Source: an uncultured Chloroflexia bacterium
GTDB taxonomy: Bacteria; Chloroflexota; Limnocylindria; Limnocylindrales; CSP1-4
DNA: 64,000 nucleotides
Reading direction: 5' to 3'
NCBI GenBank assembly: GCA_963754485.1
Contig: CAVWFY010000008.1
Location: 198,754 to 262,753 of the forward strand
A program made the position numbers and the translations under genes. Shown piece after piece: positions 16,850-63,473 of the stretch (position 1 is the stretch's first letter; each line of letters starts with the position of its first letter). The notes under the pieces were generated by a model. That model was not told the origin of the DNA. It saw only the letters and a program-made list of their open reading frames with translations, and did not search any database.

Positions 16850-16865
16850 GCGGTTCTTCTATCCA

Positions 16866-17993: not shown

Positions 17994-18158
17994 TCCCGAG
18001 CCCTGAGGCACCGGGACGCCAGCGGGGAGCCTCCCCGGAGGACCCGCAGCACTCCTCGGGACGGCGCCCCGGGGCTCGTCCCGCGGTGTCTCTTCCGGTT
18101 GCGCTCGCATTCAAACGCCATCCACCACCGCCCGTCAAGCAGGAACCCGATCGAACGA

Positions 18159-47095: not shown

Positions 47096-48556
47096 CTAGA
47101 TCGCGGCCGCTGCCACCCCGACGATCTCGAGCAGGAGGTTCGGGAACACACCCAGGATGATCGTGAGGAACGTGCTGACCGCGAGGCCAGCCCACAGGAG
47201 GCGTCCGTGGCGCAGCCGCGGGAGCTCCCCGGCCGGGTCACGCATGAACATGTAGACCACGACGCGCAGGTAGTAGAAGGCCGCGACCGCGGCGTTGAGG
47301 ACGGTCAGGATCGCGAGCGCCGTCAGCGGGCCGCCGACCTCGACCGCCGCCGAGATCACGAGGAACTTGCCGAAGAAGCCCACGGTCGGCGGGATACCGG
47401 TCAGGCTGAGCAGGAACAGCGTCAGCAGCCAGGCCATCGCCGGCTCGCGGCGAACCAGCCCCGCGAAGGTGGACAGGTTGCTGGTGACGCCCGTCCGCCG
47501 CTGGAGCGCGGCGACCACGGCGAACGCGCCCAGGTTCATGAACGCGTACGCGGCGCCGTAGAACAGCAGGGCCTCCATACCAGCGACATTCCCGGCGCCG
47601 TAGGCGGCGAACCCGACCAGCATGTAGCCGGTGTGCGCGATGGACGAGTACGCGAGCATCCGCTTCACGTTGTCCTGCTGGAGCGCGACCAGGTTGCCGA
47701 GCGTCATCGTGAGGGCCGCCAGGGCCATGAACACGATGTTCCAGTCGATCGCGAGGTCCGCGAGGCCCTCGGCGAACAGCCGGATGATCAGCGCGAACGC
47801 CCCGATCTTGGGGCCGACGGAGAGGTATCCCGTGACCGGGGTCGGGGAGCCCTGGTACGCGTCCGGCGTCCAGTAGTGGAACGGCACCGCGGCGATCTTG
47901 AAGGCGACGCCCGTGGTCATGAACGCGAGGGCCAGGCCGAGGCCCGGCGACATCGGGATAGCCCCGCCGGCCACCTGACCCATGAAGCCCGCGACTTCGG
48001 AGATGTTCGTGGTTCCGGTGATGCCCCAGACGAACGCGAGGCCGAACAGGAAGATCGCGCTCGAGAACGACCCGAGCAGGAAGTACTTGATCGCACCCTC
48101 GGTGCTGTACCCGTCGGTCTTGTGGTAGCCGGCCAGGACGTAGCCCGGCAGCACCATGAGCTCGAGCCCCAGGAACAGGACCAGCAGGTCCCCTGCGGCG
48201 GCCAGGAGCATCGCGCCCGACATCGCAAACACGAGCAGGGCGGCGAACTCCGGCACCGGCAGCCCCCGCTCCTCGAGGTAGTCCGGGGCGAAGGCCATCG
48301 TGAGCGCGATGATCGAGACGAACAGCAGGTCGAGGAACGTGGTCAGCGGGTCCACGTCGTAGGCGCCGCCGAAGGCCTCGAACGTGCTCTGACCGGTGAT
48401 CAGCACCAGGACGGCGATCAGCGCCAGGCCCATGAACGTCGTGATCAGGGCCGGGGCCTTGCGACCCGGGAAGATGAAGTCGACCGTGAGAATCGCGAGG
48501 GCGACCAGGATGGCGGCGATGAACGGCGCCAACACGGTGGCGTCCTGGAAGGTCAC
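47096..48556 (-). CDS. nuoN: NADH-quinone oxidoreductase subunit N
   Basis: EGAIKYFLLG, FKIAAVPFHYWTPDAYQG, KRMLAYSSIAH, GIPPTVGF. Confidence 0.96.
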   Translation of the reverse strand: MTFQDATVLAPFIAAILVALAILTVDFIFPGRKAPALITTFMGLALIAVLVLITGQSTFEAFGGAYDVDPLTTFLDLLFVSIIALTMAFAPDYLEERGLPVPEFAALLVFAMSGAMLLAAAGDLLVLFLGLELMVLPGYVLAGYHKTDGYSTEGAIKYFLLGSFSSAIFLFGLAFVWGITGTTNISEVAGFMGQVAGGAIPMSPGLGLALAFMTTGVAFKIAAVPFHYWTPDAYQGSPTPVTGYLSVGPKIGAFALIIRLFAEGLADLAIDWNIVFMALAALTMTLGNLVALQQDNVKRMLAYSSIAHTGYMLVGFAAYGAGNVAGMEALLFYGAAYAFMNLGAFAVVAALQRRTGVTSNLSTFAGLVRREPAMAWLLTLFLLSLTGIPPTVGFFGKFLVISAAVEVGGPLTALAILTVLNAAVAAFYYLRVVVYMFMRDPAGELPRLRHGRLLWAGLAVSTFLTIILGVFPNLLLEIVGVAAAAI

Positions 48557-48566
48557 GGGTGTCCTC

Positions 48567-50120
48567 CTACCGCCACAGGCCGAGGGCGACGGGTGCGGCC
48601 TGCGAGACGGCGGCGAGCGCGTTGTCGACGGAGCCGGCGATCAGGTCGAGAATCAGGCCCGGCCACAGGCCGAAGACCACGACGAGGACCCCGAGCGGCA
48701 CCAGCGTCAGTGCTTCGACGGGGCGCATGTCGGTCAGGTGGCTTCCCAGGCCCTTCAGGAAGTCCGAGAGCTCGCCGAACAGCACTCGCTGGAGCATCCA
48801 GAGCAGGTAGCCGGCGGCGAGGATCATCACGAACGTTGCGACTGCCGCCGCAGCCGGGTTGGCCGCGAACGTGCCCACCAGGGTCAGGAACTCGCCCACG
48901 AAGCCGGACAGGCCCGGCAGGCCCACCGAGGCGAAGACGAAGAACCCGAATGCCGCCGCGTAGACCGGGACCGCGCTGCCCAGGCCGCCCATCTTGGCGA
49001 TGGTGCGGTCATGGGTGCGCTCGTAGATCACGCCTACGAGGAGGAACAGGGCGCCGGTGATGAGGCCGTGGTTGACCATCTGCAGGATCGCGCCCTGCAT
49101 GCCCTGCTCCTGGAACACGAAGATACCGAGGGTCACGAAGCCCATGTGCGAGACGGACGAGTACGCGACCAGCTTCTTGAGGTCGGGCTGGACGAGCGCA
49201 ACGATGGCGCCGTAGATGATCGCGATCAGGCTCAGGACGATGATCAGCGGGGCCCAGGCCTGCGCCGCCTCGGGAAAGAACGGCAGGGCGAACCGGATGA
49301 ACCCGTAGCCGCCCAGCTTGAGCAGCACGCCGGCCAGGATGACCGAGCCGGCCGTCGGCGCCTCGACGTGCGCGTCGGGCAGCCAGGTATGGAACGGGAA
49401 CATCGGGACCTTGATCGCGAACGCCAGGAAGAACGCACCGAAGGCGATCAGCCCGAAGGTGCCGCCGAACGCGCCCGTCGCCGCGTAGTCGGCCAGCGCC
49501 TGCACGTCGAAGGCGCCCTCCCAGCTGCCGCCGTGCCCGCTCTGGTAGGTGTACGCGGTCGCCAGGATCGCGACCAGCATCAGCAGTGAGCCGACCAGCG
49601 TGTAGAGGACGAACTTGATCGTGGCGTAGATGCGGTTCTTGCCGCCCCAGATCCCGATGATCAGGTACATCGGCACGAGGACCAGCTCCCAGAAGATGTA
49701 GAACAGGAACAGGTCCATCGCCACGAATACGCCGATCATGCCGACTTCCAGGACGAGGAAGGAGATCATGTACTCCTTGACCCGGTACTGGATCGGCCCG
49801 AACGAGGCCAGGATGCTGATCCAGGTCAGCGTCGTCGTCAGGACGACGAGCACGATCGAGAGCCCGTCCACGCCCACGGCATAGTTGATCCCGAAGGTCG
49901 GGATCCAGGCCAGCGACTCCGTGAACTGGAAGGCGGGGTCGCTGGCGACGAAGCCCGCCAGCATGACCAGCGAGACGACCCAGGCCGCCAGCGCGAAGCC
50001 CAGCGCCAGGTAGCGCGCCATGTTCGGGCGGCCCGTGGGCGTGAAGGCGATGACGAGCGCACCGAGGGCCGGCAGGAACGTGACGAGGGTGACCATCGGG
50101 AGGTCGTTGAGCCAGGTCAT
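48567..50120 (-). CDS. nuoM: NADH-quinone oxidoreductase subunit M
   Basis: GVDGLS, YIFWELVL, IKVPMFPFHTWLPDAHVEAP, KKLVAYSSVSH, GLPGLSGFVGEF. Confidence 0.96.
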   Translation of the reverse strand: MTWLNDLPMVTLVTFLPALGALVIAFTPTGRPNMARYLALGFALAAWVVSLVMLAGFVASDPAFQFTESLAWIPTFGINYAVGVDGLSIVLVVLTTTLTWISILASFGPIQYRVKEYMISFLVLEVGMIGVFVAMDLFLFYIFWELVLVPMYLIIGIWGGKNRIYATIKFVLYTLVGSLLMLVAILATAYTYQSGHGGSWEGAFDVQALADYAATGAFGGTFGLIAFGAFFLAFAIKVPMFPFHTWLPDAHVEAPTAGSVILAGVLLKLGGYGFIRFALPFFPEAAQAWAPLIIVLSLIAIIYGAIVALVQPDLKKLVAYSSVSHMGFVTLGIFVFQEQGMQGAILQMVNHGLITGALFLLVGVIYERTHDRTIAKMGGLGSAVPVYAAAFGFFVFASVGLPGLSGFVGEFLTLVGTFAANPAAAAVATFVMILAAGYLLWMLQRVLFGELSDFLKGLGSHLTDMRPVEALTLVPLGVLVVVFGLWPGLILDLIAGSVDNALAAVSQAAPVALGLWR

Positions 50121-52165
50121 CGCGGCTGCCCCACGATCAGCAGGAACGAGCCGGCCATCACGAGCAGGCCGATCGCGATGCCCAGCGCGTAGTTCTGCAC
50201 CCGCCCGGTCTGGATCTTCCGCAGCCCCCCGCCGGCGTCCTTGACGACGGTCCCAATGCCATTGACGGTGCCGTCCACGATCCTGGTGTCGAACCACCAG
50301 AGCGCGGCGGCGACCCGTCCGCCGATGCGGATGAACAGCAGGTCGTTGAGCTCGTCGAACCACCACTTGTTGAGCGAGGCGCGGTACAGGAACCTCGTCG
50401 CGCCGTTGGCGTTCACGAGCGCGTCGATGCGCTCCTGCTTGACGCGGCGCTTGCCCACGCCGAACAGGTAGATGCCGGCGACCAGGCCGAGCGTGGCGAC
50501 GAACACGCTGGACAGGATCAGGTAGCCGTCGATGCCGAACAGCTGGTAGGTCGCGGCCTCGCCGTGCTGGTAGAGCTCCGACTCGATGAACACCGGCTCG
50601 AGCCAGTGCTTGATCGTCGAGGCCCCGAGCGGCAGCCCGAGGGCGATGCCCAGGAACGCCGACGGGATGGCGAGCAGGATCAGCGGCAGGGTCATCGTCC
50701 ACGGAGACTCGTGGACGTGCGGCTCCACGTGCGGGTCGACGCGCGACTCGCCGTAGAACGTCTTGCCCATCAGGCGCCACATGTAGAAGGCGGTCATCCC
50801 CGCCACGACGACACCGATGCCCCAGACCCAGTAGTCGCCGAACTTGAAGGCCTCGCCCAGGATCTCGTCCTTGGAGAAGAAGCCCGCGAACAGTGGGATG
50901 CCGGAGATCGCCAGGGTGCCGATGAGCATCGTGACGTGGGTGATGGGGATCTTCCGCCACAGGCCGCCCATCCGGTTCATGTCCTGCTCGCCGTCCACCG
51001 CGTGGATCACGGAGCCTGAACCGAGGAACAGCAGGCCCTTGAAGAAGCCGTGGGCCATGAGGTGGAAGATGGCGGCCACCCAGGCGCCGATGCCGAGGGC
51101 CGCGAACATGTAGCCCAGCTGCGAGAGCGTCGAGTAGGCGAGGACGCGCTTGATGTCCGTCTGGGTCAGCGCGATCGACGCGGCGAGGATGGCCGTGAAG
51201 ATGCCGATGGCCGCGACCACGACCATCGCCTCCTGCGCGTGGGCGAACAGCGGGTTGGCGCGGGCCACGAGGTACACGCCGGCGTTGACCATGGTGGCCG
51301 CGTGAATGAGGGCGGACACCGGTGTCGGGCCCTCCATCGCGTCCGGCAGCCAGACGTGGAGCGGGAACTGGGCGCTCTTGCCCATCGCGCCGGCGAAGAC
51401 CAGCAGCGCGACCACGACGATCGGGATCACGTTCGTGGCATCCGGCGCGATCAGCTTCTCGAGGGAGTCGGCGATGTTGAGCGTCCCGGTGTTGACGAAG
51501 ATCGCCATGATCCCGAGCGCGAACCCGACGTCGCCGACCCGGTTGACGATGAACGCCTTCTTGGCGGCCAGCGCCGCGGACCGCTTCTGGTACCAGAACC
51601 CGATCAGGCTGTACGACGACAGGCCCACCAGCTCCCAGCCGGCGAACACGAGCAGCCAGTTGTCCGCCAGGACCAGGACCAGCATCGAGAACATGAACAG
51701 GTTGAGGTAGGCGAAGAAGCGCCACGTGGCGTTGTCGTGCGCCATGTAGCCGACCGAGTACAGGTGCACGAGCATGCCGATCGTCGTGACGACGATCAGG
51801 AGGCAGGCGGTCAGGGCGTCCACGTGGAAGCCCATGTCGACCACGAAGTCGCCGGCGGGGATCCAGGTCCACAGGGTGATGTCCAGGCCGTGCTCGCCGA
51901 AGGGCTCGGCGTGCGTCAGAGCCGGGATCACCACGGCCATCGCGATGATCCACACCGCGACCACGGTCGCCAGCGGGACGATCTCGGCGGCCGTGCGCCC
52001 GAAGCGCATTTGCAGGCGGCGCCCGAACAGGGCCGTGAAGGCGAAGCCCAGGATGGGCAGGAGTGGGATCAGCGGGATCAGGATCCCGTAGATGCCGGGA
52101 TCCGCGGCCACGCCGACGGGCTCGGCCTCGACCGCCGCGAAGATCAGGCTCGGGAGGACGTGCAT
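50117..52165 (-). CDS. nuoL: NADH-quinone oxidoreductase subunit L
   Basis: GKSAQFPLHVWLPDAMEGPTPVSALIHAATMV, DIKRVLAYSTLSQLG, GFFSKD. Confidence 0.97.
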   Translation of the reverse strand: MHVLPSLIFAAVEAEPVGVAADPGIYGILIPLIPLLPILGFAFTALFGRRLQMRFGRTAAEIVPLATVVAVWIIAMAVVIPALTHAEPFGEHGLDITLWTWIPAGDFVVDMGFHVDALTACLLIVVTTIGMLVHLYSVGYMAHDNATWRFFAYLNLFMFSMLVLVLADNWLLVFAGWELVGLSSYSLIGFWYQKRSAALAAKKAFIVNRVGDVGFALGIMAIFVNTGTLNIADSLEKLIAPDATNVIPIVVVALLVFAGAMGKSAQFPLHVWLPDAMEGPTPVSALIHAATMVNAGVYLVARANPLFAHAQEAMVVVAAIGIFTAILAASIALTQTDIKRVLAYSTLSQLGYMFAALGIGAWVAAIFHLMAHGFFKGLLFLGSGSVIHAVDGEQDMNRMGGLWRKIPITHVTMLIGTLAISGIPLFAGFFSKDEILGEAFKFGDYWVWGIGVVVAGMTAFYMWRLMGKTFYGESRVDPHVEPHVHESPWTMTLPLILLAIPSAFLGIALGLPLGASTIKHWLEPVFIESELYQHGEAATYQLFGIDGYLILSSVFVATLGLVAGIYLFGVGKRRVKQERIDALVNANGATRFLYRASLNKWWFDELNDLLFIRIGGRVAAALWWFDTRIVDGTVNGIGTVVKDAGGGLRKIQTGRVQNYALGIAIGLLVMAGSFLLIVGQPR

Positions 52166-52177
52166 TTCGATCGCCGC

Positions 52178-52510
52178 CTACTGCCGCATCGCGTCGTACT
52201 CGTCGACGAGTGGCGTCTTCTTGTTGCGGAAGATCGCGATCACGATCGCGAGGCCCACCGTGGCCTCCGCCGCCGCGGCTGCGATGACGATCAGCGCGAT
52301 GGCGGACGCGTCCACGGTCAGCTTGAGCGTGAAGGCCCCGAACGCGATGATCGCGAGGTTGACGGCGTTGAGCATCAGCTCGATGGACATGAGCATGCTG
52401 ATCGCGTTGCGCCGGGCCAGGAAGCCGAAGGCGCCGATCGCGAACAGGAGGCAGGCGAGGACGAGGTAGGCGTCCAGGCTCTGCGAGATGCCGTCGAAGC
52501 CGGAGAGCAT
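52178..52510 (-). CDS. nuoK: NADH-quinone oxidoreductase subunit K
   Basis: RRNAISMLMSIELMLNA, AAAEATVGLAI. Confidence 0.96.
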   Translation of the reverse strand: MLSGFDGISQSLDAYLVLACLLFAIGAFGFLARRNAISMLMSIELMLNAVNLAIIAFGAFTLKLTVDASAIALIVIAAAAAEATVGLAIVIAIFRNKKTPLVDEYDAMRQ

Positions 52511-53046
52511 CAGTCGGTGCTCCCCGTCTCGCGCTTGGCGAGGAAGACCCCGCCGATCACCGCCGCCAGGAGCAGCACGCTCACGATCTCGAAGGGCAGC
52601 GTGTAGTCCGTGAACAGCGTCTGGGCCAGGTCGTTCGCGTTGGTCGCGATGCGCCTGCCGGTCTCACCCCAGTCGGTCGAGGCCACGACGACCGCCATCA
52701 GGAGGGCCAGCACCGCCGCGGCGATGGCGGCCGGGAAAGCCTGCGTCTGGAACACCAGGGACGCTGGTCCAGCCTTGGTCTGGGTCAGCATGATGGCGAA
52801 CAGGACGAGCACGCTGATGGCGCCGATGTAGACCAGCACCTGCGCGGCGGCGACCACCGTCGCGCCCGCGAACACGTACAGGCCCGCGAGCGCCGCGAAG
52901 CAGATGATCATCGCCAGGCCGCAGCGGATGATGTCCTTCATCACCACGACCAGCAGGGCCGACCCGACCATGATGGCGGCGAAGGTCATGAACAGCAGGT
53001 CATCCCACCCGAACCCAAGCAGCGGGATCGTCTCCGGCAGCGTCAC
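52510..53046 (-). CDS. nuoJ: NADH-quinone oxidoreductase subunit J
   Basis: QVLVYIGAISVLVLFAIM, YTLPFEIVSVLLLAAVIG. Confidence 0.95.
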   Translation of the reverse strand: MTLPETIPLLGFGWDDLLFMTFAAIMVGSALLVVVMKDIIRCGLAMIICFAALAGLYVFAGATVVAAAQVLVYIGAISVLVLFAIMLTQTKAGPASLVFQTQAFPAAIAAAVLALLMAVVVASTDWGETGRRIATNANDLAQTLFTDYTLPFEIVSVLLLAAVIGGVFLAKRETGSTD

Positions 53047-53055: not shown

Positions 53056-55710
53056 TCAGCGTTCCTGGGCGTGGGCGGACCCGTTCGCGGACCCGTGGTG
53101 GTGTCCGTTCCCGGTTCCGTTTCCGTTCCCGTTCCCGGTCGCGAGCGAGGCGGGGAGGACGGGGAGCAGCCGGGCCTCGTCGAGGATGCGTCCCTCGGCC
53201 CGTGCACGCTCCGCCCAGTCGCGCTCGCGGCGGATGTAGCTCATCTCCGTCTCGCGCTCGACCGCGGCCAGCGCGAGGAGGTCGATCATCGGCTCTTCGC
53301 GGGACGTGTGGCTGAGCTCGAACTGGTCGCTGTCGCGGACGGCGTCGTACGGGCAGGCGTCGACGCAGATGCCGCACAGGATGCAGCGGCTCTCGTCGAC
53401 CTCGTACTTCTGCAGGACCCGCGGCTTGGGCATCAGCGCGCCGGTGGGGCACGTCTCGGCACAGCGTCCACAGGACACGCAGGGCGTGTCGTTGAGGCTC
53501 ATGTCCAGCGGCGTCGTCACGAGGGTGTCGAAGCCGATGCGCATGAAGTCGTAGCAGGCGGCGCCCACGACCTCGGCGCACACGTTGGCGCACCGGCCGC
53601 AGTCGATGCAGCGGGCCGGCTCGCGCAGGATGAACGCGTGGCTGTCGTCGCGGACGTAGTCGTGGTTGACGCCCGTGAACCGGTTCTCGGTGACGGACCG
53701 GTAGCCGGCGCCCTGGTGGAAGTTCTTCTCCAGGGTCTTGAGCGTCGTGCCGTACTCGATGCCCAGGCGGCGCAGGTCGCAGAACCCGATGGCCTCACAG
53801 GTGCACTGGAGGCAGCGGGTGGACTCGGCCACGGCCTCGTCGCGGGAGTACGGGATCTCGTACTCGAGGTAGCTGGCGTTGCGGGCCTCGGCCTCGAGCG
53901 CCTTGAGGCGGTAGCGCGGCTCCTTGATCTCGCCCGTGAACGGCACGATCGAGAGGAACTCCGGCTGCGGCTCGGCGAGCGTCTGGCGGGTCCGGATGGC
54001 GGCGAGGTCGTTGCCCCGCAGGTAGGCGTCCACCGCGTAGGCGGCGCGACGGCCCTCGGCGATGGCCTGGACCACGGTCGCGGCGCCGATCCGGACGTCG
54101 CCGCTGGCGAACACGCCCGGGCGCCCGGTCTCGAAGGTGACGGCGTCGGCCTGGAGGCGCCGGTTGCGGGTGGCCGAGAGACCCTCGTTGCCGGGACCGA
54201 ACCAACGCAGGTCAGGACCCTGGCCGATGGCGAGCAGGACGCGGTCGCAGGGGATGATGAACTCGGTGCCCGCGGCCGGCTCCGGGCGGCGACGACCGGA
54301 CGCATCGGGCTCGCCCAGCTGCATCCGGATGAACTCGATGCCCGTCGTGGTGCCGTTCTCGTCCTTGATCACGCGCGTCGGGCCGGCCTGGAAGATGGTG
54401 GTGACACCCTCCTCGATGGCCTCGTGGACCTCGCTGGACGCGGGCATGTCCTTCATGTCGCGGCGGTAGACGAGCGTCACCTCGCCGGCGCCCTGGCGGA
54501 CCGAGGTGCGGACGCAGTCCATCGCGGTGAAGCCGCCGCCCACGACCACGACCCGGGTGCCGACGTGACCCGGGTAGGGCAGGCCGAGCGTGGCCGTGCG
54601 CAGGTACTCCAGCCCGTCGATGACGCCGTCGGCATCCTCGTCCGGGATGCCCAGCTTGTTGGTGTCGTAGCAGCCGATGGCGATGACGACGCTGTCGAAC
54701 CCCTGGTTCTGGAGGTCGTCGAGCGTGAAGTCCCGGCCCAGCTCCATGTTGCAGCGCATCTTCCCGCCCAGGCGGGTGACGGACTCGTACTCGGCCTCGA
54801 GGACCTCCACCTTGGGCAGGCGGTACTGCGGGATGCCGTAGCGGAGCATGCCGCCGGGCGCCGGGTCGCGCTCGAAGATCGTCACGTCGTGGCCGGAGAG
54901 CAGCAGGTAGAAGGCCGCGCTCATGCCGGCCGGCCCGGACCCGATGACCGCCGCGCGCCGGCCCGACGGGGCCTGCTTCTCGAACGGCAGCGGCGGGTCG
55001 ATGCCCTCGTCGAGCATCGCCTTGATCACCTGGTCGCCGGCGTAGCGATGGCTGTCGCGGATCGCGATCGCCTCGTCCACCTCGTCGCGCCGGCAGTGCT
55101 CCTCGCACGGGGCGGGGCACACGCGACCGAGCACGCTGGGGAACGGGATCGTGCGCTTGAAGATGCGCACCGACTCGCGCCACTCGGCCTCCGCGTTCGC
55201 CTTGAGGAAGCCGGGGATGTCGATGTGGCTGGGGCACTTGTTCTGGCACGGCGGCAGGCAGTACGCGTTGTGGTCGCTGAAGATCAGCTCGAGGTTGGTC
55301 TTGCGGATCCGGCGCAGCTCGTCGGTCTGGGTGCGGACCACCATGTCCGCCTCGGCCGCGCGGGAGCAGGAGATGGGAGGCTGGTCCTCGCCCTCGACCT
55401 CGACCACGCACATCCGGCAGGCGCCGAAGCCCGGCAGCTTGGGCTCGTAGCACAGCGTCGGGATCTCGATGTCGTTGTCGCGACAGACCTCGAGGATCGT
55501 CTGGCCCTCGAAGCCCTCCACGACCCGCCCGTCGACCTCGATCCGGATCCGGGGCGTGCTCTGCGGTCGCTGCGGCGACTGCGTCGTGATGAGCTGCTCG
55601 GCGAGGGAGTCCTCGCGCGGCGTCGTGGTGTCGTAGACGCGCGGGGTGTCCGGGCGGACCTCCCGGGGACGGTCGAGCGGCGTCTCGGGACGGATGATGA
55701 GGTCGGCCAT
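53056..55710 (-). CDS. 884-aa fusion: NuoG-type Fe-S N-terminus, inserted GltD/NfnB-like FAD/NADPH domain, 2x[4Fe-4S] domain, C-terminal half of NuoI
   Basis: IPTLCY..GACRMC, HNAYC, PCQNKCP, GRVCPAPCEEHC, GSGPAG, GGGFTAMD, YRR, RCLQCTC, CIDCGRC, CVSCGRCAETCP, YEVDESRCILCGICVDACP. Confidence 0.88.
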   Translation of the reverse strand: MADLIIRPETPLDRPREVRPDTPRVYDTTTPREDSLAEQLITTQSPQRPQSTPRIRIEVDGRVVEGFEGQTILEVCRDNDIEIPTLCYEPKLPGFGACRMCVVEVEGEDQPPISCSRAAEADMVVRTQTDELRRIRKTNLELIFSDHNAYCLPPCQNKCPSHIDIPGFLKANAEAEWRESVRIFKRTIPFPSVLGRVCPAPCEEHCRRDEVDEAIAIRDSHRYAGDQVIKAMLDEGIDPPLPFEKQAPSGRRAAVIGSGPAGMSAAFYLLLSGHDVTIFERDPAPGGMLRYGIPQYRLPKVEVLEAEYESVTRLGGKMRCNMELGRDFTLDDLQNQGFDSVVIAIGCYDTNKLGIPDEDADGVIDGLEYLRTATLGLPYPGHVGTRVVVVGGGFTAMDCVRTSVRQGAGEVTLVYRRDMKDMPASSEVHEAIEEGVTTIFQAGPTRVIKDENGTTTGIEFIRMQLGEPDASGRRRPEPAAGTEFIIPCDRVLLAIGQGPDLRWFGPGNEGLSATRNRRLQADAVTFETGRPGVFASGDVRIGAATVVQAIAEGRRAAYAVDAYLRGNDLAAIRTRQTLAEPQPEFLSIVPFTGEIKEPRYRLKALEAEARNASYLEYEIPYSRDEAVAESTRCLQCTCEAIGFCDLRRLGIEYGTTLKTLEKNFHQGAGYRSVTENRFTGVNHDYVRDDSHAFILREPARCIDCGRCANVCAEVVGAACYDFMRIGFDTLVTTPLDMSLNDTPCVSCGRCAETCPTGALMPKPRVLQKYEVDESRCILCGICVDACPYDAVRDSDQFELSHTSREEPMIDLLALAAVERETEMSYIRRERDWAERARAEGRILDEARLLPVLPASLATGNGNGNGTGNGHHHGSANGSAHAQER

Positions 55711-57050
55711 CAGCTGGATCCTGCTGCGGTCGCACCGGCGCCCACCGCGATCGGCGTGCAGACGCCGGCCGGGCAGGTGGAGCGAAGGAGGTGGTCGTCG
55801 AGCTCGGACCGGAAGTATCGCATTGCGCTGGTGAAGGGCAGGGTGGCCAGCCGCTCGTGGTCGCACAGCGCCGAAGCCGCGATGTCGTGCGCGAGGTCGA
55901 CCAGCAGGGCCGGGTCGGTCGGCTTCGGCGTGCCGCCGGCGATGCGGTCGCCGATCTCGTACAGGCGGCGCAGGCCGATCCGGCAGGGGATGGACTTGCC
56001 GCAGGCGGCGTCCGCCGAGAACTTCGTCAGGAGCCGGGCGAGGTCCACGATGCAGGCCCGCTCGTCGGCGATGACCACGGATCCGGAGCCCACGTGGGCG
56101 CCCGCCTCGCGCAGCGCGTCGAACTCGTACGGGGTGTCCAGGAGGTCCGGGGGCAGGATGCCGCCGGTGGGTCCGCCCACCAGGATGGCCTTGAGCTCGC
56201 GACCCCCGGTGCCGCCCGCGAGCCGCACCAGCTCGCGCAGGGGCGTGCCCAGCGGGACCTCGGCGATCCCGCCACCCTCGGGGCCGCGCAGCTGGACGAG
56301 GACCGTGCCGGGGCTGGACGCTGCGCCGATCGCGGCGAATGCCTCGCGGCCGTTGACCATGATCCACGGGACCGCGGCCAGGGTCTGCACGTTGTTGACG
56401 ACGGTGGGCCTGTCGAACAGCCCCTTCTCGGTGGGGTACGGCGGGCGCTGGTCGGGCTGGCCCCGCTTGCCCTCGAGGGCCTTGATGAGGACCGTCTCCT
56501 CGCCCAGCATGTAGGCGCCCTGGACCGGGCGGACCGTCACGTTCACACGGTGGCCGGACCCGGCCGCGTCCTCGCCCAGGAAGCCCGCCTCCTCGGCCGC
56601 GAGGACCGCGCCCTCGAGCATCGTGACCAGCGCCGGGTCGTCGGCCCGCACGGCCAGAATCGCCTCGCTGGCGCCGATCGCGAAGGCCGCGATCGCGAGC
56701 CCTTCGATCACGGCGTACGGGTCGGCGGCGAGCAGCGCCGCGTCGGCCTGGACCGCCGGGTCTGCGCCGTAGCCGTTGGCGATCACGTAGCGCTGGTCGG
56801 CGGGTTGCGCGGCGGCGGCGCGCCACTTCTCGCCGGTCGGGAAGCCGGCCCCGCCGCGGCCCCGGAGACCGGAGCCGGCGATCGTGGCGATGCTCCCGAT
56901 GGCGCCATGGTCCCTGACCGCCCGCCGGAGACCCTCGAAGGCGCCGGCACGGACGGCGGCGTCGAGGTCGGACGGGTCGGCGGCGACGGCGGCCACACGC
57001 TCGAGCAGGACGCTCGGCCAATCACCCGGCGTGGCGAGGAAGCTGCCCAT
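55710..57050 (-). CDS. nuoF: NuoF/HydB-like flavoprotein subunit with degenerate motifs
   Basis: SGLRGRGGAGFPTG, GEET, PTVVNNVQT, GGPTGG, GSGSVV, CGKSIPCR, CPAGVC. Confidence 0.85.
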   Translation of the reverse strand: MGSFLATPGDWPSVLLERVAAVAADPSDLDAAVRAGAFEGLRRAVRDHGAIGSIATIAGSGLRGRGGAGFPTGEKWRAAAAQPADQRYVIANGYGADPAVQADAALLAADPYAVIEGLAIAAFAIGASEAILAVRADDPALVTMLEGAVLAAEEAGFLGEDAAGSGHRVNVTVRPVQGAYMLGEETVLIKALEGKRGQPDQRPPYPTEKGLFDRPTVVNNVQTLAAVPWIMVNGREAFAAIGAASSPGTVLVQLRGPEGGGIAEVPLGTPLRELVRLAGGTGGRELKAILVGGPTGGILPPDLLDTPYEFDALREAGAHVGSGSVVIADERACIVDLARLLTKFSADAACGKSIPCRIGLRRLYEIGDRIAGGTPKPTDPALLVDLAHDIAASALCDHERLATLPFTSAMRYFRSELDDHLLRSTCPAGVCTPIAVGAGATAAGSS

Positions 57051-57709
57051 CAGTTGGCCCGCCCCCCGTAGCCCAGGGAGACGTCCAACGCGGAGCGGAA
57101 CGCCGTCTCGTCGGCGCGGTGCGCCTCGCCGGCCACGGGTGCCTCAACAGCGGGCGGCTCGAAGCGCAGGTGGCGGTAGTAGCTCGCGGTGCCGTAGATC
57201 ATCGCGTACCAGGCGCCGGTCACCCGGGAGATGTGCTTGAGCGCGGCAACCGGGAGGTACCCGTACTCCGCCTGGGTCTCCTCGAGGATGGCCAGCATCT
57301 GCTTCGGGTCGTAGTCATGGGCCTCGAGGATCGCGTCCAGGGGCTCGAGGTCGATGCCGTCGAAGCGGATGAATGCGGGGTCGGCCACCGGTCGGCCGGA
57401 CCGCCGGAGCGCGGACTCCTCGCGACGCTCGCCGTAGGTCTCCGGGGCGCCCCAGTGGACGTGGAAGCGGCCCTTGGTGTCCACGCCGCCCATGTCGATG
57501 CACTCGATGGGGCAGGCCTGGGCGCACTGGAAGCACGTCTCGCACTTGAGCGTGCCGTACTCGTCGTAGAGCAGCTGCAGGCGGCCGCGGAACCTGGGCG
57601 CGACGTCGGCGTGCTGCTCGGGCCACATGATGGTGGCCTTGGGCTGGAAGAACCGCCGCAGGGTCAGGCTCATGCCGCGGACCAGGCCCATGCCGGGAAT
57701 GACGCTCAT
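57050..57709 (-). CDS. Fusion of NuoI N-terminal half and NuoE N-terminal helical domain
   Basis: GMSLTLRRFF...WPE...RFRGR...CETCFQCAQACP (NuoI), then LAILEETQAEYGYLP...IYGTASYY (NuoE); no [2Fe-2S] cysteines. Confidence 0.87.
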   Translation of the reverse strand: MSVIPGMGLVRGMSLTLRRFFQPKATIMWPEQHADVAPRFRGRLQLLYDEYGTLKCETCFQCAQACPIECIDMGGVDTKGRFHVHWGAPETYGERREESALRRSGRPVADPAFIRFDGIDLEPLDAILEAHDYDPKQMLAILEETQAEYGYLPVAALKHISRVTGAWYAMIYGTASYYRHLRFEPPAVEAPVAGEAHRADETAFRSALDVSLGYGGRAN

Positions 57710-57716
57710 CGGACGC

Positions 57717-59088
57717 TCACAGGCTCTTCACGACGACGATCGCCGTCGCGGTCAGGAACAGGTTGAAGAGCGCGGCGGGCAGGAGCCACTTCCACGCGAA
57801 GCCCATCAGGTGGTCGATGCGCACTCGTGGGAAGGTGCCCCGCATCCAGACGAACACGAACACGAAGATGAACGACTTGACCATGAACCAGATCAGCCCG
57901 GCGAACCAGTCCCAGCCGATGTAGGCCAGCGCCATGGCGCCGCCAATGGCCACCAGGTTGAACAGGAGGAAGCCGATGATCAGCGCCTGCCAGGCGGGCA
58001 TGTGGCTGCGGGTCAGGTAGAACGGCAGGGCGAAGAGCACGGTCAGGGCGAGGGGCATGGCCGCCACCAGGATCAGGAGGCCGACGCCCAGCGAGGCTGG
58101 GTCCAGCGCAACCGTGGGCGGCTGGAGCCCGACGAGCGCGAACAGGTCGTTGGTGTTGATCGGCGCGTTCCACGCCCCGAAGAACAGGGTGACCAGCAGC
58201 GCCGAGACGATGAACACGTTCACGTACTCGGCGAAGAACAGGAACCCGAAGCGCATGCCCGAGTATTCGGTCGCGAAGCCGGCGACGATCTCGGAGTCCG
58301 CCTCGGTCAGGTCGAACGGCGTCCGGTTCGCCTCCGCCGTGGCGGCGATGAAGAAGATCAGCGCGCCCAGCGGCTGGCGGAAGACGAACCAGTTCGTGAA
58401 CCAGCCTTCCTGCTGCTCCGCGATGCCGTTGAGGCTCATCGTGCCGGCAAGCAGGATCAGGCCCACGACCGACAGGGTGAGCGGGCAGCTCGTAGGAGAT
58501 CGACTGGGCCGCGGAGCGGATGCCGCCCAGCAGCGAGTACTTGTTGAACGACGACCAGCCCGCCAGGAGCAGGCCCACGACGGTCATGCCGCCCACCGCG
58601 AACAGGTAGAGCAGGCCGATGTTGAAGTCCTGGCCCACGAGTCCCGGCCCGAACGGGATGACCATGAACACCATCACCGCGGTGAGGAACACGAGCACGG
58701 GCGCCCAGGTGAAGACGATCCGGTCCGCGTTGGCGGGGGAGAAGTCCTCCTTGGACAGCACCTTGAGGCCGGCGACCAGGGAGTGGGCAGCGCCACCCGG
58801 CCCGACCCGGTTGGGTCCGACCCGGGTGTTCATGTAGGCGATGACCTTGAGCTCCATGTAGATGATGATGAACGCGGCCGGGATGCTGAACAGCAGGATG
58901 GCCGTGATCGCCACCACGAACCGCACGACCCCCATGTTCGACCCGAGCACGTCCAGCACGAACGGGCCGACGTAGACCGCGCCGAGGACCGTCAGGAACG
59001 GCCCGATCACGAGGACCAGGAGCAGCAGGGGCACGATGACCTTGCCCAGGGTCGTGAGGCCGCGGCTGGGGGGGTTGAGGGTCGTCAT
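57717..59088 (-). CDS. nuoH: NADH-quinone oxidoreductase subunit H; +1 frameshift at 58483-58485
   Basis: RVGPNRVG, KVLSKED, SLLGGIRSAAQSISYELP in one frame; AEANRTPFDLTEADSE, TEYSG, RGTFPRVRID in another. Confidence 0.93.
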
Positions 59089-59119: not shown

Positions 59120-60358
59120 TCACTTGTCGATGCCGCCCATGACCGGGTCGATCGACGCCATGACGGCCATCGTGTCCGCGATCAGGTTGCCCTTCATGAG
59201 CATGCCCACGAGCTGCATGTTGACGAAGGACGGGTCGTGGATCTTCATCCGGAACGGCTGGTCCGTGCCGTCCGAGATGGCGTACGTGCCGTACAGCCCG
59301 CGCGGGGCCTCGACGGCCGCCCAGGCCCGGCCCGGCCGCGGGCGGAGCAGGCGCGGGAGGCGCGCCATGACCGGCCCGTCGGGCATGCTGTGGAGGCACT
59401 GGTCGATGATCCGGATGCTCTCCCGGACCTCGTCGAGGCGGAGCAGGTAACGGTCCAGCGAGTCGCCTCCGTCCCTGGTGCCACGGACCGGGATGTCGAA
59501 CTCGAGCTCCGGGTAGACGGAGTAGGGATGCGCGCGGCGGACGTCGAACGGGACGCCGGCGGCGCGCAGGTTCGGGCCGGTGACGGCCATGCGCAGGGCG
59601 GTGTCCCTGTCCAGCTTGCCGATGCCGCGCATGCGCCGGACGAAGATCTCGTTCTCGTTGAGCAGCCCGATGCTGGCCTCGTGCTGCTTGGCGGCACGGC
59701 TCATCCAGTCGCCCAGGCGGGACATGAACTCGTGGTTGAGGTCGCCGTTCACGCCGCCGATGCGGAAGTAGTTGAACAGCATCCGCTGGCCGGTGATCGC
59801 CGCCAGCATCTCCACGATCTCGTCGCGCTCGATGAAGCTGTACAGGATGGGCGTGAGCCCGCCGAGGTCCAGCGCCATCCAGCCCTGGTAGAGGGCGTGG
59901 CTGGAGACGCGGAGCAGCTCGCCGGTGAGCACGCGGATGTACTCGGCGCGGCGCGGGACCCCCACGTCCAGGAGCTTCTCGAACGCCATCACCGGCGCCC
60001 ACTCCATGAACAGCGAGCTCACGTACTCGAGCGGGTCCACCTGGCTGATGATGTGGTGGTAGTCCGAGGTCTCGCACAGCTTCTCCACGCCGCGGTGGAG
60101 GTAGCCGAGGACCGGGTCCAGGTCCACGACCTGCTCGCCGTTGATCTTGAGCACGACCCGCAGGACTCCGTGCGTGGACGGGTGCTGGGGTCCCATGTTG
60201 AGGAACATCTCGCCGTCGCGGAGGCTGTAGAACTCGGCCTCGCGCTCGGTGCGCGGTGGGTACGGCGGGACGGCCTCGAACGCACCGATCTGGTTGTCGA
60301 GCATGATCCGGGGATCGTCCTCGGACGCGTGCTGGCCGATGGGCGAGTGTGTCGTCAT
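59120..60358 (-). CDS. nuoD: NADH-quinone oxidoreductase subunit D
   Basis: LNMGPQHPSTHGVLR, GYLHRGVEK, EAPRG, DPVMGGIDK (no Ni-binding CxxC). Confidence 0.97.
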   Translation of the reverse strand: MTTHSPIGQHASEDDPRIMLDNQIGAFEAVPPYPPRTEREAEFYSLRDGEMFLNMGPQHPSTHGVLRVVLKINGEQVVDLDPVLGYLHRGVEKLCETSDYHHIISQVDPLEYVSSLFMEWAPVMAFEKLLDVGVPRRAEYIRVLTGELLRVSSHALYQGWMALDLGGLTPILYSFIERDEIVEMLAAITGQRMLFNYFRIGGVNGDLNHEFMSRLGDWMSRAAKQHEASIGLLNENEIFVRRMRGIGKLDRDTALRMAVTGPNLRAAGVPFDVRRAHPYSVYPELEFDIPVRGTRDGGDSLDRYLLRLDEVRESIRIIDQCLHSMPDGPVMARLPRLLRPRPGRAWAAVEAPRGLYGTYAISDGTDQPFRMKIHDPSFVNMQLVGMLMKGNLIADTMAVMASIDPVMGGIDK

Positions 60359-60361: not shown

Positions 60362-60910
60362 TCAGGCCTTCACGGTGCGGCGGACCACGCGCTCCGTCGC
60401 CTGCGACGGGGCGTGCGTCTGCTCCATGTGGCGGACCCCGCCGCCCGGGGACCGCGCCGCGTCGTCGGCAAGGTAGAAGTCCTTGCGCAGCGGGAAGCTC
60501 GTGTAATCGGGGGGCATGTAGATCCGGCGCAGATCGCGGTTGCCCTCGAAGATGATCCCGAACATGTCGTATGTCTCGCGCTCCATCCACTCGGCACCGG
60601 GCCACAGGCCGGTGAGGGTGGCGATCCGCGGGTTGTCGCGCGGCAGGCCGTCGGCGATCACGCGCAACCAGTCCGGCGTCGTCGCCGACCAGAGGTGGTA
60701 GGCGACCTGCATCTGGTTGCCGGTGTCCACGCCGGCGAGGTCGGCCAGGACCGCGAAGTCCAGCTCCGGCTCGTCGTGCAGGGCCGTCATCACCTCGGTC
60801 AGGTCGGCGGCCCCGATCCGGAGCTCGGTCTCGTCGTGGCGCTGGCGCACGGGGCCCGTGACCCTGTCGGCGAAGCGCGCCTCGAGGCGTCTGCGCAACT
60901 GGCGGTCCAT
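60362..60910 (-). CDS. nuoC: NADH-quinone oxidoreductase subunit C
   Basis: LWPGAEWMERETYDMFGI.FEG...LRRI, FPLRKDF. Confidence 0.95.
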   Translation of the reverse strand: MDRQLRRRLEARFADRVTGPVRQRHDETELRIGAADLTEVMTALHDEPELDFAVLADLAGVDTGNQMQVAYHLWSATTPDWLRVIADGLPRDNPRIATLTGLWPGAEWMERETYDMFGIIFEGNRDLRRIYMPPDYTSFPLRKDFYLADDAARSPGGGVRHMEQTHAPSQATERVVRRTVKA

Positions 60911-60912: not shown

Positions 60913-61686
60913 CTAGACGTCCTGGGGCACGTTGGGGCCGATGGGCCGGTCCGGCCACTGGCCGCGCCGCTCCTTGACGAGCTGGCCCAGCTTCATCATC
61001 CCGTAGATCAGGCCCTCGGGGCGCGGCGGGCAGCCGGGGACGTACACGTCCACCGGCATGAGCCGGTCGATGCCCTCGATGGTCGAGTAGCTGCGCTTGT
61101 AGCGGCCCCCGGAGCACGTGCAGTCGCCCATCGCGACGCACCACTTGGGTTCCGGCATCTGCTCCCAGAGACGGACGAGCGGGCCGGCCATCTTGGTGGT
61201 CAGCGTACCGGCGACGATCAGCACGTCCGCCTGGCGGGGGCTCGCCCGGAACGGGAACATGCCCCAGCGGTCCATGTCGTTCTTGGACGTGGCCGCGGAC
61301 ATCATCTCGATGGCGCAGCAGGCCAGGCCCGACAGGAGCGGCCAGAGGCTGTTCATCCGGATGAGATCGACGAGCAGGTCCGCCTTGGTGGGGATGACCT
61401 CGAGCTGGCCCCAGCGCGCGGTGTCGGCGTTGGCGAGCTCGTCGTGGGCGAGCTCCCGCAGGTGCGTGAAGGCAGGCGCCGTGCTTGCGTAGGAGCCCGG
61501 GCTGGCCGAGGTCCACAGGGTGTTGGGGACCACGATGGGGGCCATGAGGTCGGCCGGGGAGGCGGCGACGAGGGACGCCGGGTGCACGCGCTCGTCGGGG
61601 GGCGCCTGGAGGCCGGCCTCGGGCCCGACGTCCAGGCCCGTGCCCTCGTCCGTGCCCTCGTCCGGGCCGTCAGGCGTCAACGCCAC
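60913..61686 (-). CDS. nuoB: NADH-quinone oxidoreductase subunit B (acidic N-terminal extension)
   Basis: GLACCAIEM, ASPRQAD, PEPKWCVAMGDC, VDVYVPGCPPRPE. Confidence 0.97.
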   Translation of the reverse strand: MALTPDGPDEGTDEGTGLDVGPEAGLQAPPDERVHPASLVAASPADLMAPIVVPNTLWTSASPGSYASTAPAFTHLRELAHDELANADTARWGQLEVIPTKADLLVDLIRMNSLWPLLSGLACCAIEMMSAATSKNDMDRWGMFPFRASPRQADVLIVAGTLTTKMAGPLVRLWEQMPEPKWCVAMGDCTCSGGRYKRSYSTIEGIDRLMPVDVYVPGCPPRPEGLIYGMMKLGQLVKERRGQWPDRPIGPNVPQDV

Positions 61687-62039: not shown

Positions 62040-62096
62040 GAGGTCCTCGAGGGCGTGGCAATGATCCCGCCCGCGGAGACGCGGCACGGCGCGGTC

Positions 62097-63463: not shown

Positions 63464-63473
63464 CGTGGGGATC

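Follow-up and report, generated by a model that had tools for sequence, protein, structure and literature searches.

A nuo operon of Limnocylindria with a StnC/NfnA-type subunit and a NuoI sequence divided between two polypeptides

A three-gene module occupies the position of nuoI

The window analyzed in this study is a 64,000-nucleotide stretch of DNA from an uncultured Chloroflexia bacterium of the class Limnocylindria (GenBank assembly GCA_963754485.1, contig CAVWFY010000008.1, positions 198,754 to 262,753), and coordinates given below refer to this window unless another contig or one of our L-numbered loci is named. It carries an operon for respiratory complex I with the gene order nuoA-B-C-D-H-[IE-F-GX]-J-K-L-M-N, in which all genes are on the minus strand. 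The three bracketed genes form a module that occupies the exact place of nuoI in an otherwise 11-gene-type nuo operon. IE (57050..57709) encodes a 219-residue fusion of the N-terminal parts of NuoI and NuoE, as identified by NuoI models, PF01257, and PDB matches. F (55710..57050) encodes a 446-residue protein with a NuoF/BfuB core (Pfam, TIGR01959, and PDB chains). GX (53056..55710) encodes an 884-residue fusion protein that was assigned from its translation, from Pfam, NCBIfam, and PDB matches, and from family alignments. The complex predicted from this operon is a new variant of complex I.

An earlier sequence-only reading of the window had placed the fusion gene at 53250-55710. The ATG of GX at 55710 shares the sequence TGATG with the TGA of the upstream F gene, and the proposed end falls about 65 codons short of the stop codon at 53056-53058. 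Start and stop codons abut or overlap from nuoH through nuoJ, so the operon is translationally coupled, and it unites NuoB, NuoC, and NuoD with NuoA, NuoH, and NuoJ through NuoN, with a Pfam match for each subunit. The placement of the fusion in a respiratory operon, as the same reading had claimed, thus holds.

GX is a StnC/NfnA-type subunit with a different C-terminus

From its N-terminus, GX comprises an extension, a [2Fe-2S] domain, a split His-cluster motif, a GltD/NfnB module, a domain for two [4Fe-4S] clusters (2x[4Fe-4S]), the C-terminal half of NuoI, and a tail. The [2Fe-2S] domain (residues 54-129; 55324..55551) is of the NuoG/HydA type (N1b/FS2 type) and matches PF13510 (Fer2_4) with an E value of 3.8e-20. 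Its ligands C87, C98, C101, and C115 are all invariant in an alignment with 21 orthologues from Ktedonobacteria, which is the set used for the statements of invariance made below for GX. At residues 147-160 (55231..55272), the sequence HNAYC-LPPCQNKCP provides the first two ligands of an N5-like cluster (HNAYC, 147-151) and then directly the first cluster motif of GltD (PPCQNKCP, 153-160). The NuoG N5 model PF10588 covers only residues 136-152 of GX, and because this match stops at profile position 17 of 40 (positions 1-17), we consider the N5 motif to be interrupted.

The interruption is caused by a GltD/NfnB-like module with two [4Fe-4S] motifs (residues 151-566; 54013..55260), which was recognized by PF14691 (Fer4_20; residues 151-230, beginning at profile position 27) and PF07992 (Pyr_redox_2; residues 253-553, E value 1e-31). 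The second cluster motif is CPAPCEEHC (198-206). These are followed by the loop that binds flavin adenine dinucleotide (FAD), GSGPAG (257-262), by the second Rossmann motif GGGFTAMD (391-398), and by YRR (415-417). This part of GX scores 330 bits with TIGR01318, 269 bits with NfnB (4ylf_B), and 228 bits with GltD, and the NfnB/NfnL chains (262-269 bits) and GltD match the flavoprotein part of GX only.

The broken motif resumes at residues 632-644 (53779..53817) with RCLQCTCEAIGFC, which contains a C-x2-C that finishes the GltD cluster and a C-x5-C that finishes the N5-like cluster. Thus, C155 and C159 of the first GltD cluster are completed by C633 and C636, and the His cluster is built from H147-x3-C151 and, beyond an insert of about 480 residues, C638-x5-C644. 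We take this H-x3-C...C-x5-C pattern to be the NuoG N5 spacing H-x3-C-x2-C-x5-C, in which the insert separates the second ligand from the third. C633, C636, C638, and C644 are invariant, and the same motif is aligned in StnC and 9bov_A.

The 2x[4Fe-4S] domain that follows (residues 694-765; 53416..53631) is of the HydA/HoxU type, with one N4/FS4B-like and one FS4A-like cluster. PF22117 (Fer4_Nqo3) matches residues 694-759, and FeFe-hydrogenase and HoxU models match this domain as well. Both of its CxxCxxCxxxC motifs, RCIDCGRCANVC at 700-711 and CVSCGRCAETCP at 744-755, are invariant. A third motif, CxxCxxCxxxCP, lies beyond this domain at residues 776-787 within a Pfam 4Fe-4S match (769-791). 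The tail (residues 831-884; 53059..53220) is weakly conserved, with 23% identity to the Ktedonobacteria orthologues, and is different or absent in other families. Its end (53059-53140) is a Gly/Asn/His-rich stretch of low complexity, GNGNGNGTGNGHHHGSANGSAHAQER, that is present in this genus only.

No molybdopterin-type domain was detected in GX by Pfam or NCBIfam models, and the protein ends 120 residues past the 2x[4Fe-4S] domain. The NuoG model TIGR01973 reaches 85.9 bits, far from its curated cut-off of 470, and aligns with only the N-terminal 100 or so residues. The best NCBIfam model is NF009454/PRK12814, which aligns residues 55-713 to profile positions 4-630 of 657 with a score of 557.2 bits, again below the curated cut-off (916). 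Among PDB chains, the best matches are 9bov_A (554 bits), StnC (8oh5_C, 481 bits), and NfnA (9n5u_A, 477 bits). GX is collinear with all three from residue 55 to about 787, including every cluster motif and the same point of GltD insertion, and the alignment to StnC/NfnA-type chains ends at about residue 700 of their 1172-1178 residues. Relatives were ranked by bit scores and by this shared insertion point. These data show the predicted GX protein to be a StnC/NfnA-type (BfuA) subunit in which the FdhF-like C-terminal domain has been swapped for the second half of NuoI. As judged from the defining features of these families, GX is not a member of NuoG, StnC/NfnA, or NuoI, although it is clearly descended from them.

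GX and StnC/NfnA have in common the FAD loop, the sequence GGMLRYGIP (which includes the equivalent of R239 of StnC), and a YRR where the second Rossmann beta-strand ends, and the latter proteins are experimentally NADPH specific (PMC10482914, PMC12018979). Although GX is only 42-46% identical to the Ktedonobacteria orthologues, all cluster ligands, GxGxxG, GGMLRYGIP, Y415, and R417 are invariant, which is far beyond chance; R416 of YRR is not on this list. Identity is 47-55% in the cofactor domains and 34% in the NuoI half. His221, which is invariant throughout the family, occupies the position of the Lys or Glu ligand of the FAD-proximal cluster in related enzymes, and Ile165, in a GltD-like CPxxIDIP context, sits where StnC has Cys114.

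Much of this had been described in the sequence-only reading, namely the interrupted N5 motif with its GltD/NfnB insert between the [2Fe-2S] and 2x[4Fe-4S] domains, the missing molybdopterin-like domain, the layout of a Stn-type large subunit, and a YRR/Rossmann signature for NADPH that proved to be conserved in the GX family as in its NADPH-specific relatives. All the motifs quoted there are present, and the model and structure searches described above agree with each of the other points. That reading did not include the NuoI half at the C-terminus of GX, which would join the module both physically and electronically to the quinone module.

NuoI is divided between IE and GX

The NuoI-like segment of GX (residues 766-830; 53221..53415) reads QKYEVDESRCILCGICVDACPYDAV...FELS and was identified by TIGR01971 and by PDB matches. 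When the last 124 residues of GX are searched alone, they align to positions 71-116 of the 121 in TIGR01971 (44.5 bits, E value 1e-11), and the six top families are all NuoI. The best PDB matches to the C-terminus as a single stretch are the second halves of NuoI/TYKY subunits, and these extend past the Cys motif into F-E-x-S. C776, C779, C782, C786, and F797-E-L-S800 are invariant.

The first half of NuoI is found at about residues 1-85 of IE and likewise contains one CxxCxxCxxxCP motif (C56-x2-C-x2-C-x3-C66-P). NuoI models align residues 8-83 of IE to profile positions 12-88 of 180, and TIGR01971 is matched from position 1 to 65 of 121 with 49.9 bits. When residues 1-82 of IE are joined in silico to residues 762-839 of GX (78 residues), the product gives one unbroken NuoI match over profile positions 1-116 of 121, and the nine top families are all NuoI. 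The breakpoint coincides with the hairpin between the two pseudo-symmetric ferredoxin half-motifs. No single polypeptide with both CxxCxxCxxxCP motifs and a score above 113 bits belongs to the nuo operon. Because a lone CxxCxxCxxxCP motif cannot form the dicluster fold, and two such motifs correspond to N6a and N6b, we infer that the NuoI halves assemble across the two polypeptides.

The remainder of IE is a remnant of NuoE. Residues 117-187 or thereabouts correspond to the N-terminal helical domain of NuoE, with PF01257 matched at positions 2-63 of 145 only, and the thioredoxin-like [2Fe-2S] domain is missing. In our alignment, the NuoE cluster ligands are gone from every IE protein compared. 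The domain itself has been deleted in this genus, and it is present without the second Cys pair in the IE proteins of a family with small genomes and of a further family of Limnocylindria, f3. The nearest PDB partners of IE are the N-terminal domains of StnA/NfnC. In public annotations, IE appears as ‘NAD(P)H-dependent oxidoreductase subunit E’ of Candidatus Limnocylindrales/Limnocylindria.

F resembles the B subunits of Bfu enzymes and has a remodeled flavin site

Pfam models show that F combines the NuoF fold for flavin mononucleotide (FMN) with the helical domain of cluster N3. Its score with the NuoF model TIGR01959 is 325.6 bits, below the cut-off of 558.65. It is closest to the B subunits of Bfu enzymes (NfnB, 350 bits; 9bov_B, 348; HydB, 346; StnB, 342) and more distant from respiratory NuoF (Mycobacterium smegmatis, 269 bits; Thermus Nqo1, 235). 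F spans residues 113-527 of the 584- to 602-residue StnB/NfnB chains and thus lacks both the N-terminal [2Fe-2S] domain of BfuB and its C-terminal 2x[4Fe-4S] ferredoxin domain (B3/B4). A vestigial CPAGVC is present at residues 426-431, 15 residues ahead of the stop.

The flavin-fold motifs GRGGAGFPTGxKW, GEET, and NNV are retained, and the flavin loop reads N92-G-Y94-G-A-D97-P, compared to NADEGDPG in paralogues from the same genome and to the NADExEPG loop that, along with a four-Cys N3 cluster, characterizes NuoF. Tyr94 occupies the position of Asp-195 in Thermococcus sibiricus NfnB, and this Asp-to-Tyr change is found throughout the family. Asp-195 has been proposed to stabilize the flavosemiquinone (PMC12018979). 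In the Ktedonobacteria, 51 of 74 F proteins have the loop NAYDAD.

The N3 motif of F is C350-G-K-S353-I-P-C356, with C396-D-H398 downstream. The second Cys has been lost only in those lineages of Limnocylindria that have the full operon, whereas N3 is intact in the F proteins of Ktedonobacteria. A His residue is found one or two positions past the fourth N3 Cys in exactly those lineages that are missing the second Cys. This pattern may reflect a ligand swap, and the loss of the Cys and gain of the His were probably a single evolutionary event.

The surrounding operon and its neighbors

The quinone-module genes include nuoB (60913..61545; PF01058), which keeps the N2 ligands in GLACCAIEM, MGDC, and GCPP, nuoC (60362..60910; PF00329, E value 5e-37), and nuoD (59120..60358; PF00346, E value 5e-82), which has HPSTHGVLR and GYLHRG and, on our reading of the sequence, retains the His and Tyr segments of the quinone site. 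The gene nuoA (61677..62087) is an open reading frame (ORF) with 86% identity to the gene at the nuoA position in a genome of the same genus. The membrane-arm block (47096..53046) was assigned from ORFs, PF00499 and PF00361, and synteny, and consists of nuoJ (52510-53046), nuoK (52178-52510), nuoL (50117-52165), nuoM (48567-50120), and nuoN (47096-48556).

The nuoH gene (57706..59088; PF00146) extends over two frames, such that profile positions 4-143 and 149-298 are encoded in different frames. Nucleotide alignment with a same-genus genome reveals one surplus C near position 58480 (CTGCCCGCT here versus CT-CCCGCT there), and deletion of one C within 58470-58490 brings back the frame, giving SYELPLTLSVVGL. 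The frameshift is seen in this assembly only, and the same-genus orthologue is intact. Elsewhere in the genome, the NuoF paralogue of a formate-dehydrogenase-like cluster (locus L004, about 1105; contig 13, about 160106) is also split across two frames. The assembly comprises 2.83 megabases (Mb) in 22 contigs with an estimated completeness of only 57%. Together, the two frameshifts and this low completeness for 22 contigs suggest indel errors in the assembly.

Directly upstream of nuoA and in the same orientation is a gene for a methyltransferase of the MidA/NDUFAF7 family (62237-63523, minus strand; PF02636, E value 1e-47). In mitochondria, this family methylates the homologue of NuoD. Downstream of nuoN, a gene on the minus strand (45486-46265) encodes a protein with a weak sortase-domain match (24.5 bits, under the Pfam cut-off), and a clear sortase gene lies upstream of a Ktedonobacterales nuoB-IE-F-GX cluster (L028, 5800-6483). 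The presence of sortases beside both module loci is probably a coincidence.

The operon encodes the only predicted complex I of the genome and class

A genome-wide profile search found one nuo operon in this genome and no NuoG above the cut-off of TIGR01973, and a cut-off search of five further Limnocylindria genomes from four families again found no canonical NuoG. The proposal that GX stands in the place of NuoG, together with the suggestion to look for a canonical nuoEFG elsewhere in the genome, came from the sequence-only reading, and both fit this outcome: there is no such set, and the genome's three remaining NuoF paralogues are encoded in the formate-dehydrogenase-like cluster and in two [NiFe] hydrogenase clusters of the Hox type. 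In genomes of 1.1-1.4 Mb from the same order, the F protein of the operon is the sole NuoF-family match, and the two halves are the sole NuoI-specific matches. These searches show the operon to encode the sole predicted complex I, and GX to be the sole predicted substitute for NuoG, in this genome and in the class Limnocylindria.

Several other clusters in this genome contain related proteins. Contig 14 (about 14900-22200) encodes two antiporter-like subunits and proteins resembling NuoD (28% identity), NuoI, and NuoB, and this cluster probably specifies either an Mbx-like complex or a membrane-bound hydrogenase of group 4. Apart from the module, only this cluster gave a NuoI-like match in the genome. 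A soluble cluster on contig 13 (263028-267852; L001) encodes a NuoF-like protein, a separate GltD-like protein, a HoxU-like protein, and the large subunit of a [NiFe] hydrogenase, and is a candidate NADP-linked Hox-type hydrogenase. Its GltD-like protein is 38% identical to the GltD part of GX. The second Hox-type cluster is at L002, and several [NiFe] hydrogenase clusters occur in this genome and its relatives. We also considered whether the module might be a stand-in for a missing transhydrogenase. This idea was rejected, given that PntB is present in all Limnocylindria tested, even those with 1.1-Mb genomes, and absent in the Ktedonobacteria that carry the module.

Conservation and variant contexts of the module

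The GX architecture was found in 41 of 41 relatives, closed genomes included. The full operon has one and the same gene order in genomes of this genus and in another family of the order, whose genomes measure 1.0-1.4 Mb. Between these families, amino acid identities are 74-75% for GX, 74% for NuoD, about 70% for IE, 64% for NuoL, 58% for NuoN, 54-56% for NuoH, 53% for NuoJ, and 52% for F. Judged by these values, GX is under as much constraint as the best-conserved core subunit, and F is under the least. This pattern shows the predicted module proteins to be under purifying selection.

Across 401 genomes sampled from the phylum, both parts of IE are present as a fusion in all 46 of the Limnocylindria listed, and at least 16 genomes of other families carry such a fusion at about 30% identity. 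Only 56 relatives of IE were found at an E value of 1e-30 or better among 1.84 billion cluster representatives, which indicates that the family is lineage restricted. Likewise, a protein search with the IE type of family f3 returned Limnocylindria only.

The genomic context of the module varies among lineages. Family f3 has the full operon with an unrelated gene ahead of nuoJ; this gene, between GX and nuoJ, encodes a metallophosphoesterase-like protein (GNHEY...GHDHDYER; L025, 14730-15776). In another family, f4, nuoB-nuoD-IE-F-GX is on one contig and a single nuoH is located with nuoJ-K-L-M-N on another. In the Ktedonobacteria, a stand-alone nuoB-IE-F-GX cluster is flanked by unrelated genes. 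Cultured carriers include Ktedonobacter racemifer DSM 44963, Thermogemmatispora carboxidivorans, Thermosporothrix hazakensis, and Dictyobacter aurantiacus, the last of which has a second copy of the GX gene in tandem right behind the first (L094, 10805-12721).

Ktedonobacteria with the module also possess a canonical operon that contains NuoG. Furthermore, they have a second high-scoring nuoH in a four-gene nuoA-nuoC-nuoD-nuoH cluster that lacks exactly nuoB and nuoI. These complementary clusters are located at L096 (5521-10570) and L113 (7086-11587) in T. carboxidivorans and at L108 and L114 in K. racemifer, and the pairing suggests that they may encode a second isoform of complex I. Because every variant context keeps nuoB beside IE-F-GX, the module is always co-inherited with NuoB, and it is complemented by genes of the quinone module. 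The variant contexts thus support a predicted complex I role for IE-F-GX.

Proposed electron path and alternative explanations

We consider it moderately probable that this complex is a non-bifurcating, proton-pumping NAD(P)H:quinone oxidoreductase, possibly a dual one, in which the NuoI halves are reassembled and electrons exit through the iron-sulfur (Fe-S) branch that leads nowhere in Stn. This mechanism was derived by homology with the solved structures of StnABC, NfnABC, CpI hydrogenase, and Nqo3. NADPH would be oxidized at the GltD FAD, a site that is supported by the basic YRR with which the second beta-alpha-beta unit ends, as it does in StnC, NfnA, NfnB, and GltD. By way of both GltD clusters and then the N5-like cluster with its His ligand, electrons would reach the N4-like cluster, which would act as a Y-junction. 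One arm would run via the [2Fe-2S] and N3-like clusters to F, whose FMN site probably still takes NADH, which would make the complex a dual NADH/NADPH:quinone oxidoreductase. The third arm would leave the junction through the FS4A-like cluster, which has been lost in canonical NuoG. This branch goes on to the H-cluster domain in HydA and to the pterin domain in Fdh and Stn; here, it would lead to N6a/N6b, N2, and quinone, with NuoH, NuoJ, NuoK, NuoL, NuoM, and NuoN pumping protons. The two NuoI halves are predicted to pair into one 2x[4Fe-4S] ferredoxin fold carrying N6a and N6b that docks on NuoB and NuoD. The resulting double covalent tether between the input and quinone modules would plausibly offset the absence of the large NuoG domain.

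Several observations weigh against the electron path proposed above. The joined NuoI halves score 102.5 bits, slightly under the curated TIGR01971 cut-off of 113. AlphaFold gave GX a mean predicted local distance difference test score of 33 from the single sequence and 54 with a 22-sequence alignment; in the latter run, the [2Fe-2S] and Rossmann parts were confident and residues 579-884 fell below 50, and the cluster-to-cluster distances are taken from homologous structures only. The preference for NADPH is predicted from a motif rule and from homology, and because PntB is present, another outlet for NADPH is not obviously required. The assembly also has the 1-bp frameshift in nuoH. This is probably an assembly indel rather than a sign of a pseudogene, although a reader might combine it with the split NuoF paralogue and the low completeness and conclude that the cluster is an assembly artifact or is decaying. 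The chance of this is negligible: GX, F, and IE are all intact ORFs, and the recurrence of their architecture with invariant ligands in every relative, including closed genomes and cultured Ktedonobacteria, refutes an artifact. A further concern is F, because its loop is altered family-wide from NADEGDPG to N-(A/G)-Y-x-x-D-P, its second N3 Cys is Ser, Thr, or Ala in the full-operon Limnocylindria, and it is the fastest-evolving protein of the module, with the result that its FMN site may be dead or disconnected. F could then be a mere scaffold in a complex I that takes all its electrons from NADPH at the GltD FAD. Consistent with this are the substitutions D94Y, E95G, and E97D (Thermus Nqo1 numbering), an N3 motif of the form C-x2-S-x2-C that varies in three lineages as if the position were no ligand, an identity between families of only 52% where GX has 74%, and a NuoE-like partner that has no cluster and in this genus has lost the whole domain. 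However, F retains its flavin-fold motifs, its gene is kept in streamlined 1.1-Mb genomes, the His beside the fourth N3 Cys suggests a ligand swap, and the altered loop is itself conserved in Ktedonobacteria with an intact N3, which has the look of remodeling and not of decay. We therefore regard catalytic loss of F as rather unlikely, and the activity of its remodeled site as uncertain.

Another explanation assigns NADH to the GltD-type site, which would make the complex an ordinary NADH:quinone oxidoreductase with an unusual head. This would suit the sole complex I of aerobic heterotrophs that need to reoxidize NADH and have PntB available for NADPH supply; moreover, PF22366 found no NDH-2 C-terminal domain in four genomes of the order, a silence that says little because the same model missed the Escherichia coli and Bacillus subtilis controls. 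Such a change of substrate is improbable, since YRR is basic and no acidic residue is present at the end of the second beta-strand anywhere in the family, as in the NADPH-specific StnC, NfnA, NfnB, and GltD. The same complex might also run mostly in reverse, with the proton-motive force pushing electrons from quinol to NADP+ and/or NAD+ for biosynthesis, for example when H2, CO, or another donor at the quinone level supports growth. Complex I is reversible, the genome and its relatives encode several [NiFe] hydrogenases, and the module-bearing Ktedonobacteria lack PntB. The direction of a reaction is not readable from sequence, but the 1.1-Mb Limnocylindria, which have PntB and are without a canonical complex I, must have an NAD(P)H dehydrogenase that runs forward, and we find a mainly reverse mode decidedly improbable. 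The sequence-only reading had described the complex as possibly bifurcating. A Stn-like bifurcating or confurcating enzyme, or an energy-coupled transhydrogenase linking NADH, NADPH, and quinone, would be in keeping with descent from Bfu-type enzymes, with the convergence of two nucleotide sites and a quinone exit on one Y-junction, and with the confurcating ‘Nuo-Bfu’ complex I predicted in other phyla (PMC9304861). This suggestion did not hold up, and we rate it as very unlikely, because three of the four components of the Bfu flavobicluster are missing (C1, B3/B4, and Asp-195, which is Tyr94 here) and the fourth, B1, is altered (PMC12018979, PMC10482914), and because the transfer of electrons to quinone is exergonic from both NADH and NADPH, such that coupling is unnecessary. 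Bfu-type bifurcation by the module is thus unlikely. It is conceivable, if improbable, that an NAD(H) flavin, an NADP(H) flavin, and the quinone/pump exit meet at one Fe-S Y-junction as a three-terminal machine that, in addition to proton pumping with NADPH or NADH, exchanges reducing equivalents between NAD and NADP as controlled by the proton-motive force and the quinone pool. It would then constitute a new energy-linked transhydrogenase or confurcating complex I that arose through the insertion of a soluble Stn/Nfn-type operon into the nuoI gene of an 11-subunit complex I.

Implications

To our knowledge, complex I is textbook-invariant both in its NADH-input module and in having NuoI as a single subunit. 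A whole class of bacteria that is abundant in soil and fresh water nevertheless appears to run its only complex I on a transhydrogenase-derived head, with an NADPH-type site and a core subunit built from two polypeptides. If the non-bifurcating path is correct and NADPH oxidation is linked to pumping, the complex would stand as the first member of the complex I type in nature to act as a proton-pumping NADPH:quinone oxidoreductase, and models of redox balance and energy yield in Limnocylindria would change. The proposed path also offers a function for the Fe-S side branch that has been deemed an unexplained relic in Stn. More generally, the operon is a natural experiment in modular evolution that illustrates a route by which complex I can gain an N-module. 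Because cultured Ktedonobacteria (K. racemifer, Thermogemmatispora, Thermosporothrix, and Dictyobacter) carry the module, it is directly testable.

Comparison with known systems

Full-text searches of the literature did not find a description of this architecture, and the nearest reports are PMC9304861 and PMC4758237. Compared with the canonical 14-subunit complex I (Thermus thermophilus Nqo1-15, E. coli), the predicted complex has in common NuoA, NuoB, NuoC, NuoD, NuoH, and NuoJ through NuoN, a flavoprotein with the NuoF fold, the N1b-, N4-, and N5-like motifs, and, in total, the N6a and N6b motifs. It differs in that NuoI is on two polypeptides, N1a is absent, and the genes for the input module lie between nuoH and nuoJ. 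Unlike canonical NuoG, GX lacks the molybdopterin-like domain and N7, has GltD within the N5 motif, and has an additional FS4A-like cluster, and the exit to NuoI would be through this FS4A-like branch rather than through N5.

Many Chloroflexi genomes have been scored as having 13 of the 14 subunits of complex I and ‘missing only NuoG’ (Spero et al., PMC4453560). The IE-F-GX design probably explains such surveys.

A Nuo-Bfu complex I with a full BfuABC head at the nuoEFG position has been predicted in Geobacter and others (Schut et al. 2022, PMC9304861). It has been proposed to confurcate NADH and ferredoxin and was reported from Deferribacteres, Proteobacteria, Planctomycetes, and Nitrospirae (PMC9304861). 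The likeness lies in the idea of a Bfu-family module that takes the NuoEFG role in a proton-pumping, menaquinone-reducing complex I. However, Nuo-Bfu has the full bifurcating BfuBC core, no GltD/NADPH domain, and an intact nuoI, and BfuB was defined in that survey by a ferredoxin domain that is absent from F. In Mbx-like complexes, a GltD-related flavoprotein is said to substitute for NuoI (Degli Esposti 2015, PMC4758237), and the likeness to the present case is that a relative of complex I carries a GltD-type NAD(P)H flavoprotein in the place of NuoI. Mbx-like complexes are derived from hydrogenases and reduce NAD(P)+, with NuoI substituted, whereas here NuoI is kept as halves in a true nuo operon that also encodes a NuoF-like subunit and a chain of clusters of the NuoG type. 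The NF009454/PRK12814 family (‘putative NADPH-dependent glutamate synthase small subunit’), the best NCBIfam model for GX, has a [2Fe-2S]-GltD arrangement of about 650 residues without the 2x[4Fe-4S] domain and NuoI-half extension of GX.

The closest relatives are StnABC/NfnABC (Sporomusa ovata 8oh5, T. sibiricus 9n5u, and 9bov). Their large subunits share the domain order of GX through the 2x[4Fe-4S] domain, namely a [2Fe-2S] domain, a His motif split by GltD/NfnB, RCLxCxC..C, and 2x[4Fe-4S], with HxxxCxPPC in both. The FAD and NADPH motifs are the same, and F is nearest to StnB/NfnB. Several features nonetheless differ. All NfnABC enzymes use Lys as the ligand of the FAD-proximal cluster (A7/C7), namely K165 in T. 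sibiricus and K170 in S. ovata, and NfnL uses Glu (PMC12018979), compared with His221 in GX, and Cys114 of StnC is replaced by Ile165. F is without the N-terminal domain, C-terminal ferredoxin domain, and Asp-195 of BfuB, and IE, the BfuC-like part, lacks the [2Fe-2S] cluster C1 of Bfu enzymes. The Stn/Nfn enzymes are soluble, whereas IE-F-GX is encoded within the operon of a membrane complex. The FAD-C7-C6-C5-C4-C3 chain of StnC supplies the flavoprotein StnB, and C2/C1 lead into the catalytically dead FdhF-like domain and have been termed a non-functional evolutionary remnant (PMC10482914). GX departs from StnC exactly at the onset of this domain, and the FdhF/NuoG-like C-terminal domain of StnC/NfnA (about 480 residues) is replaced in GX by half of NuoI.

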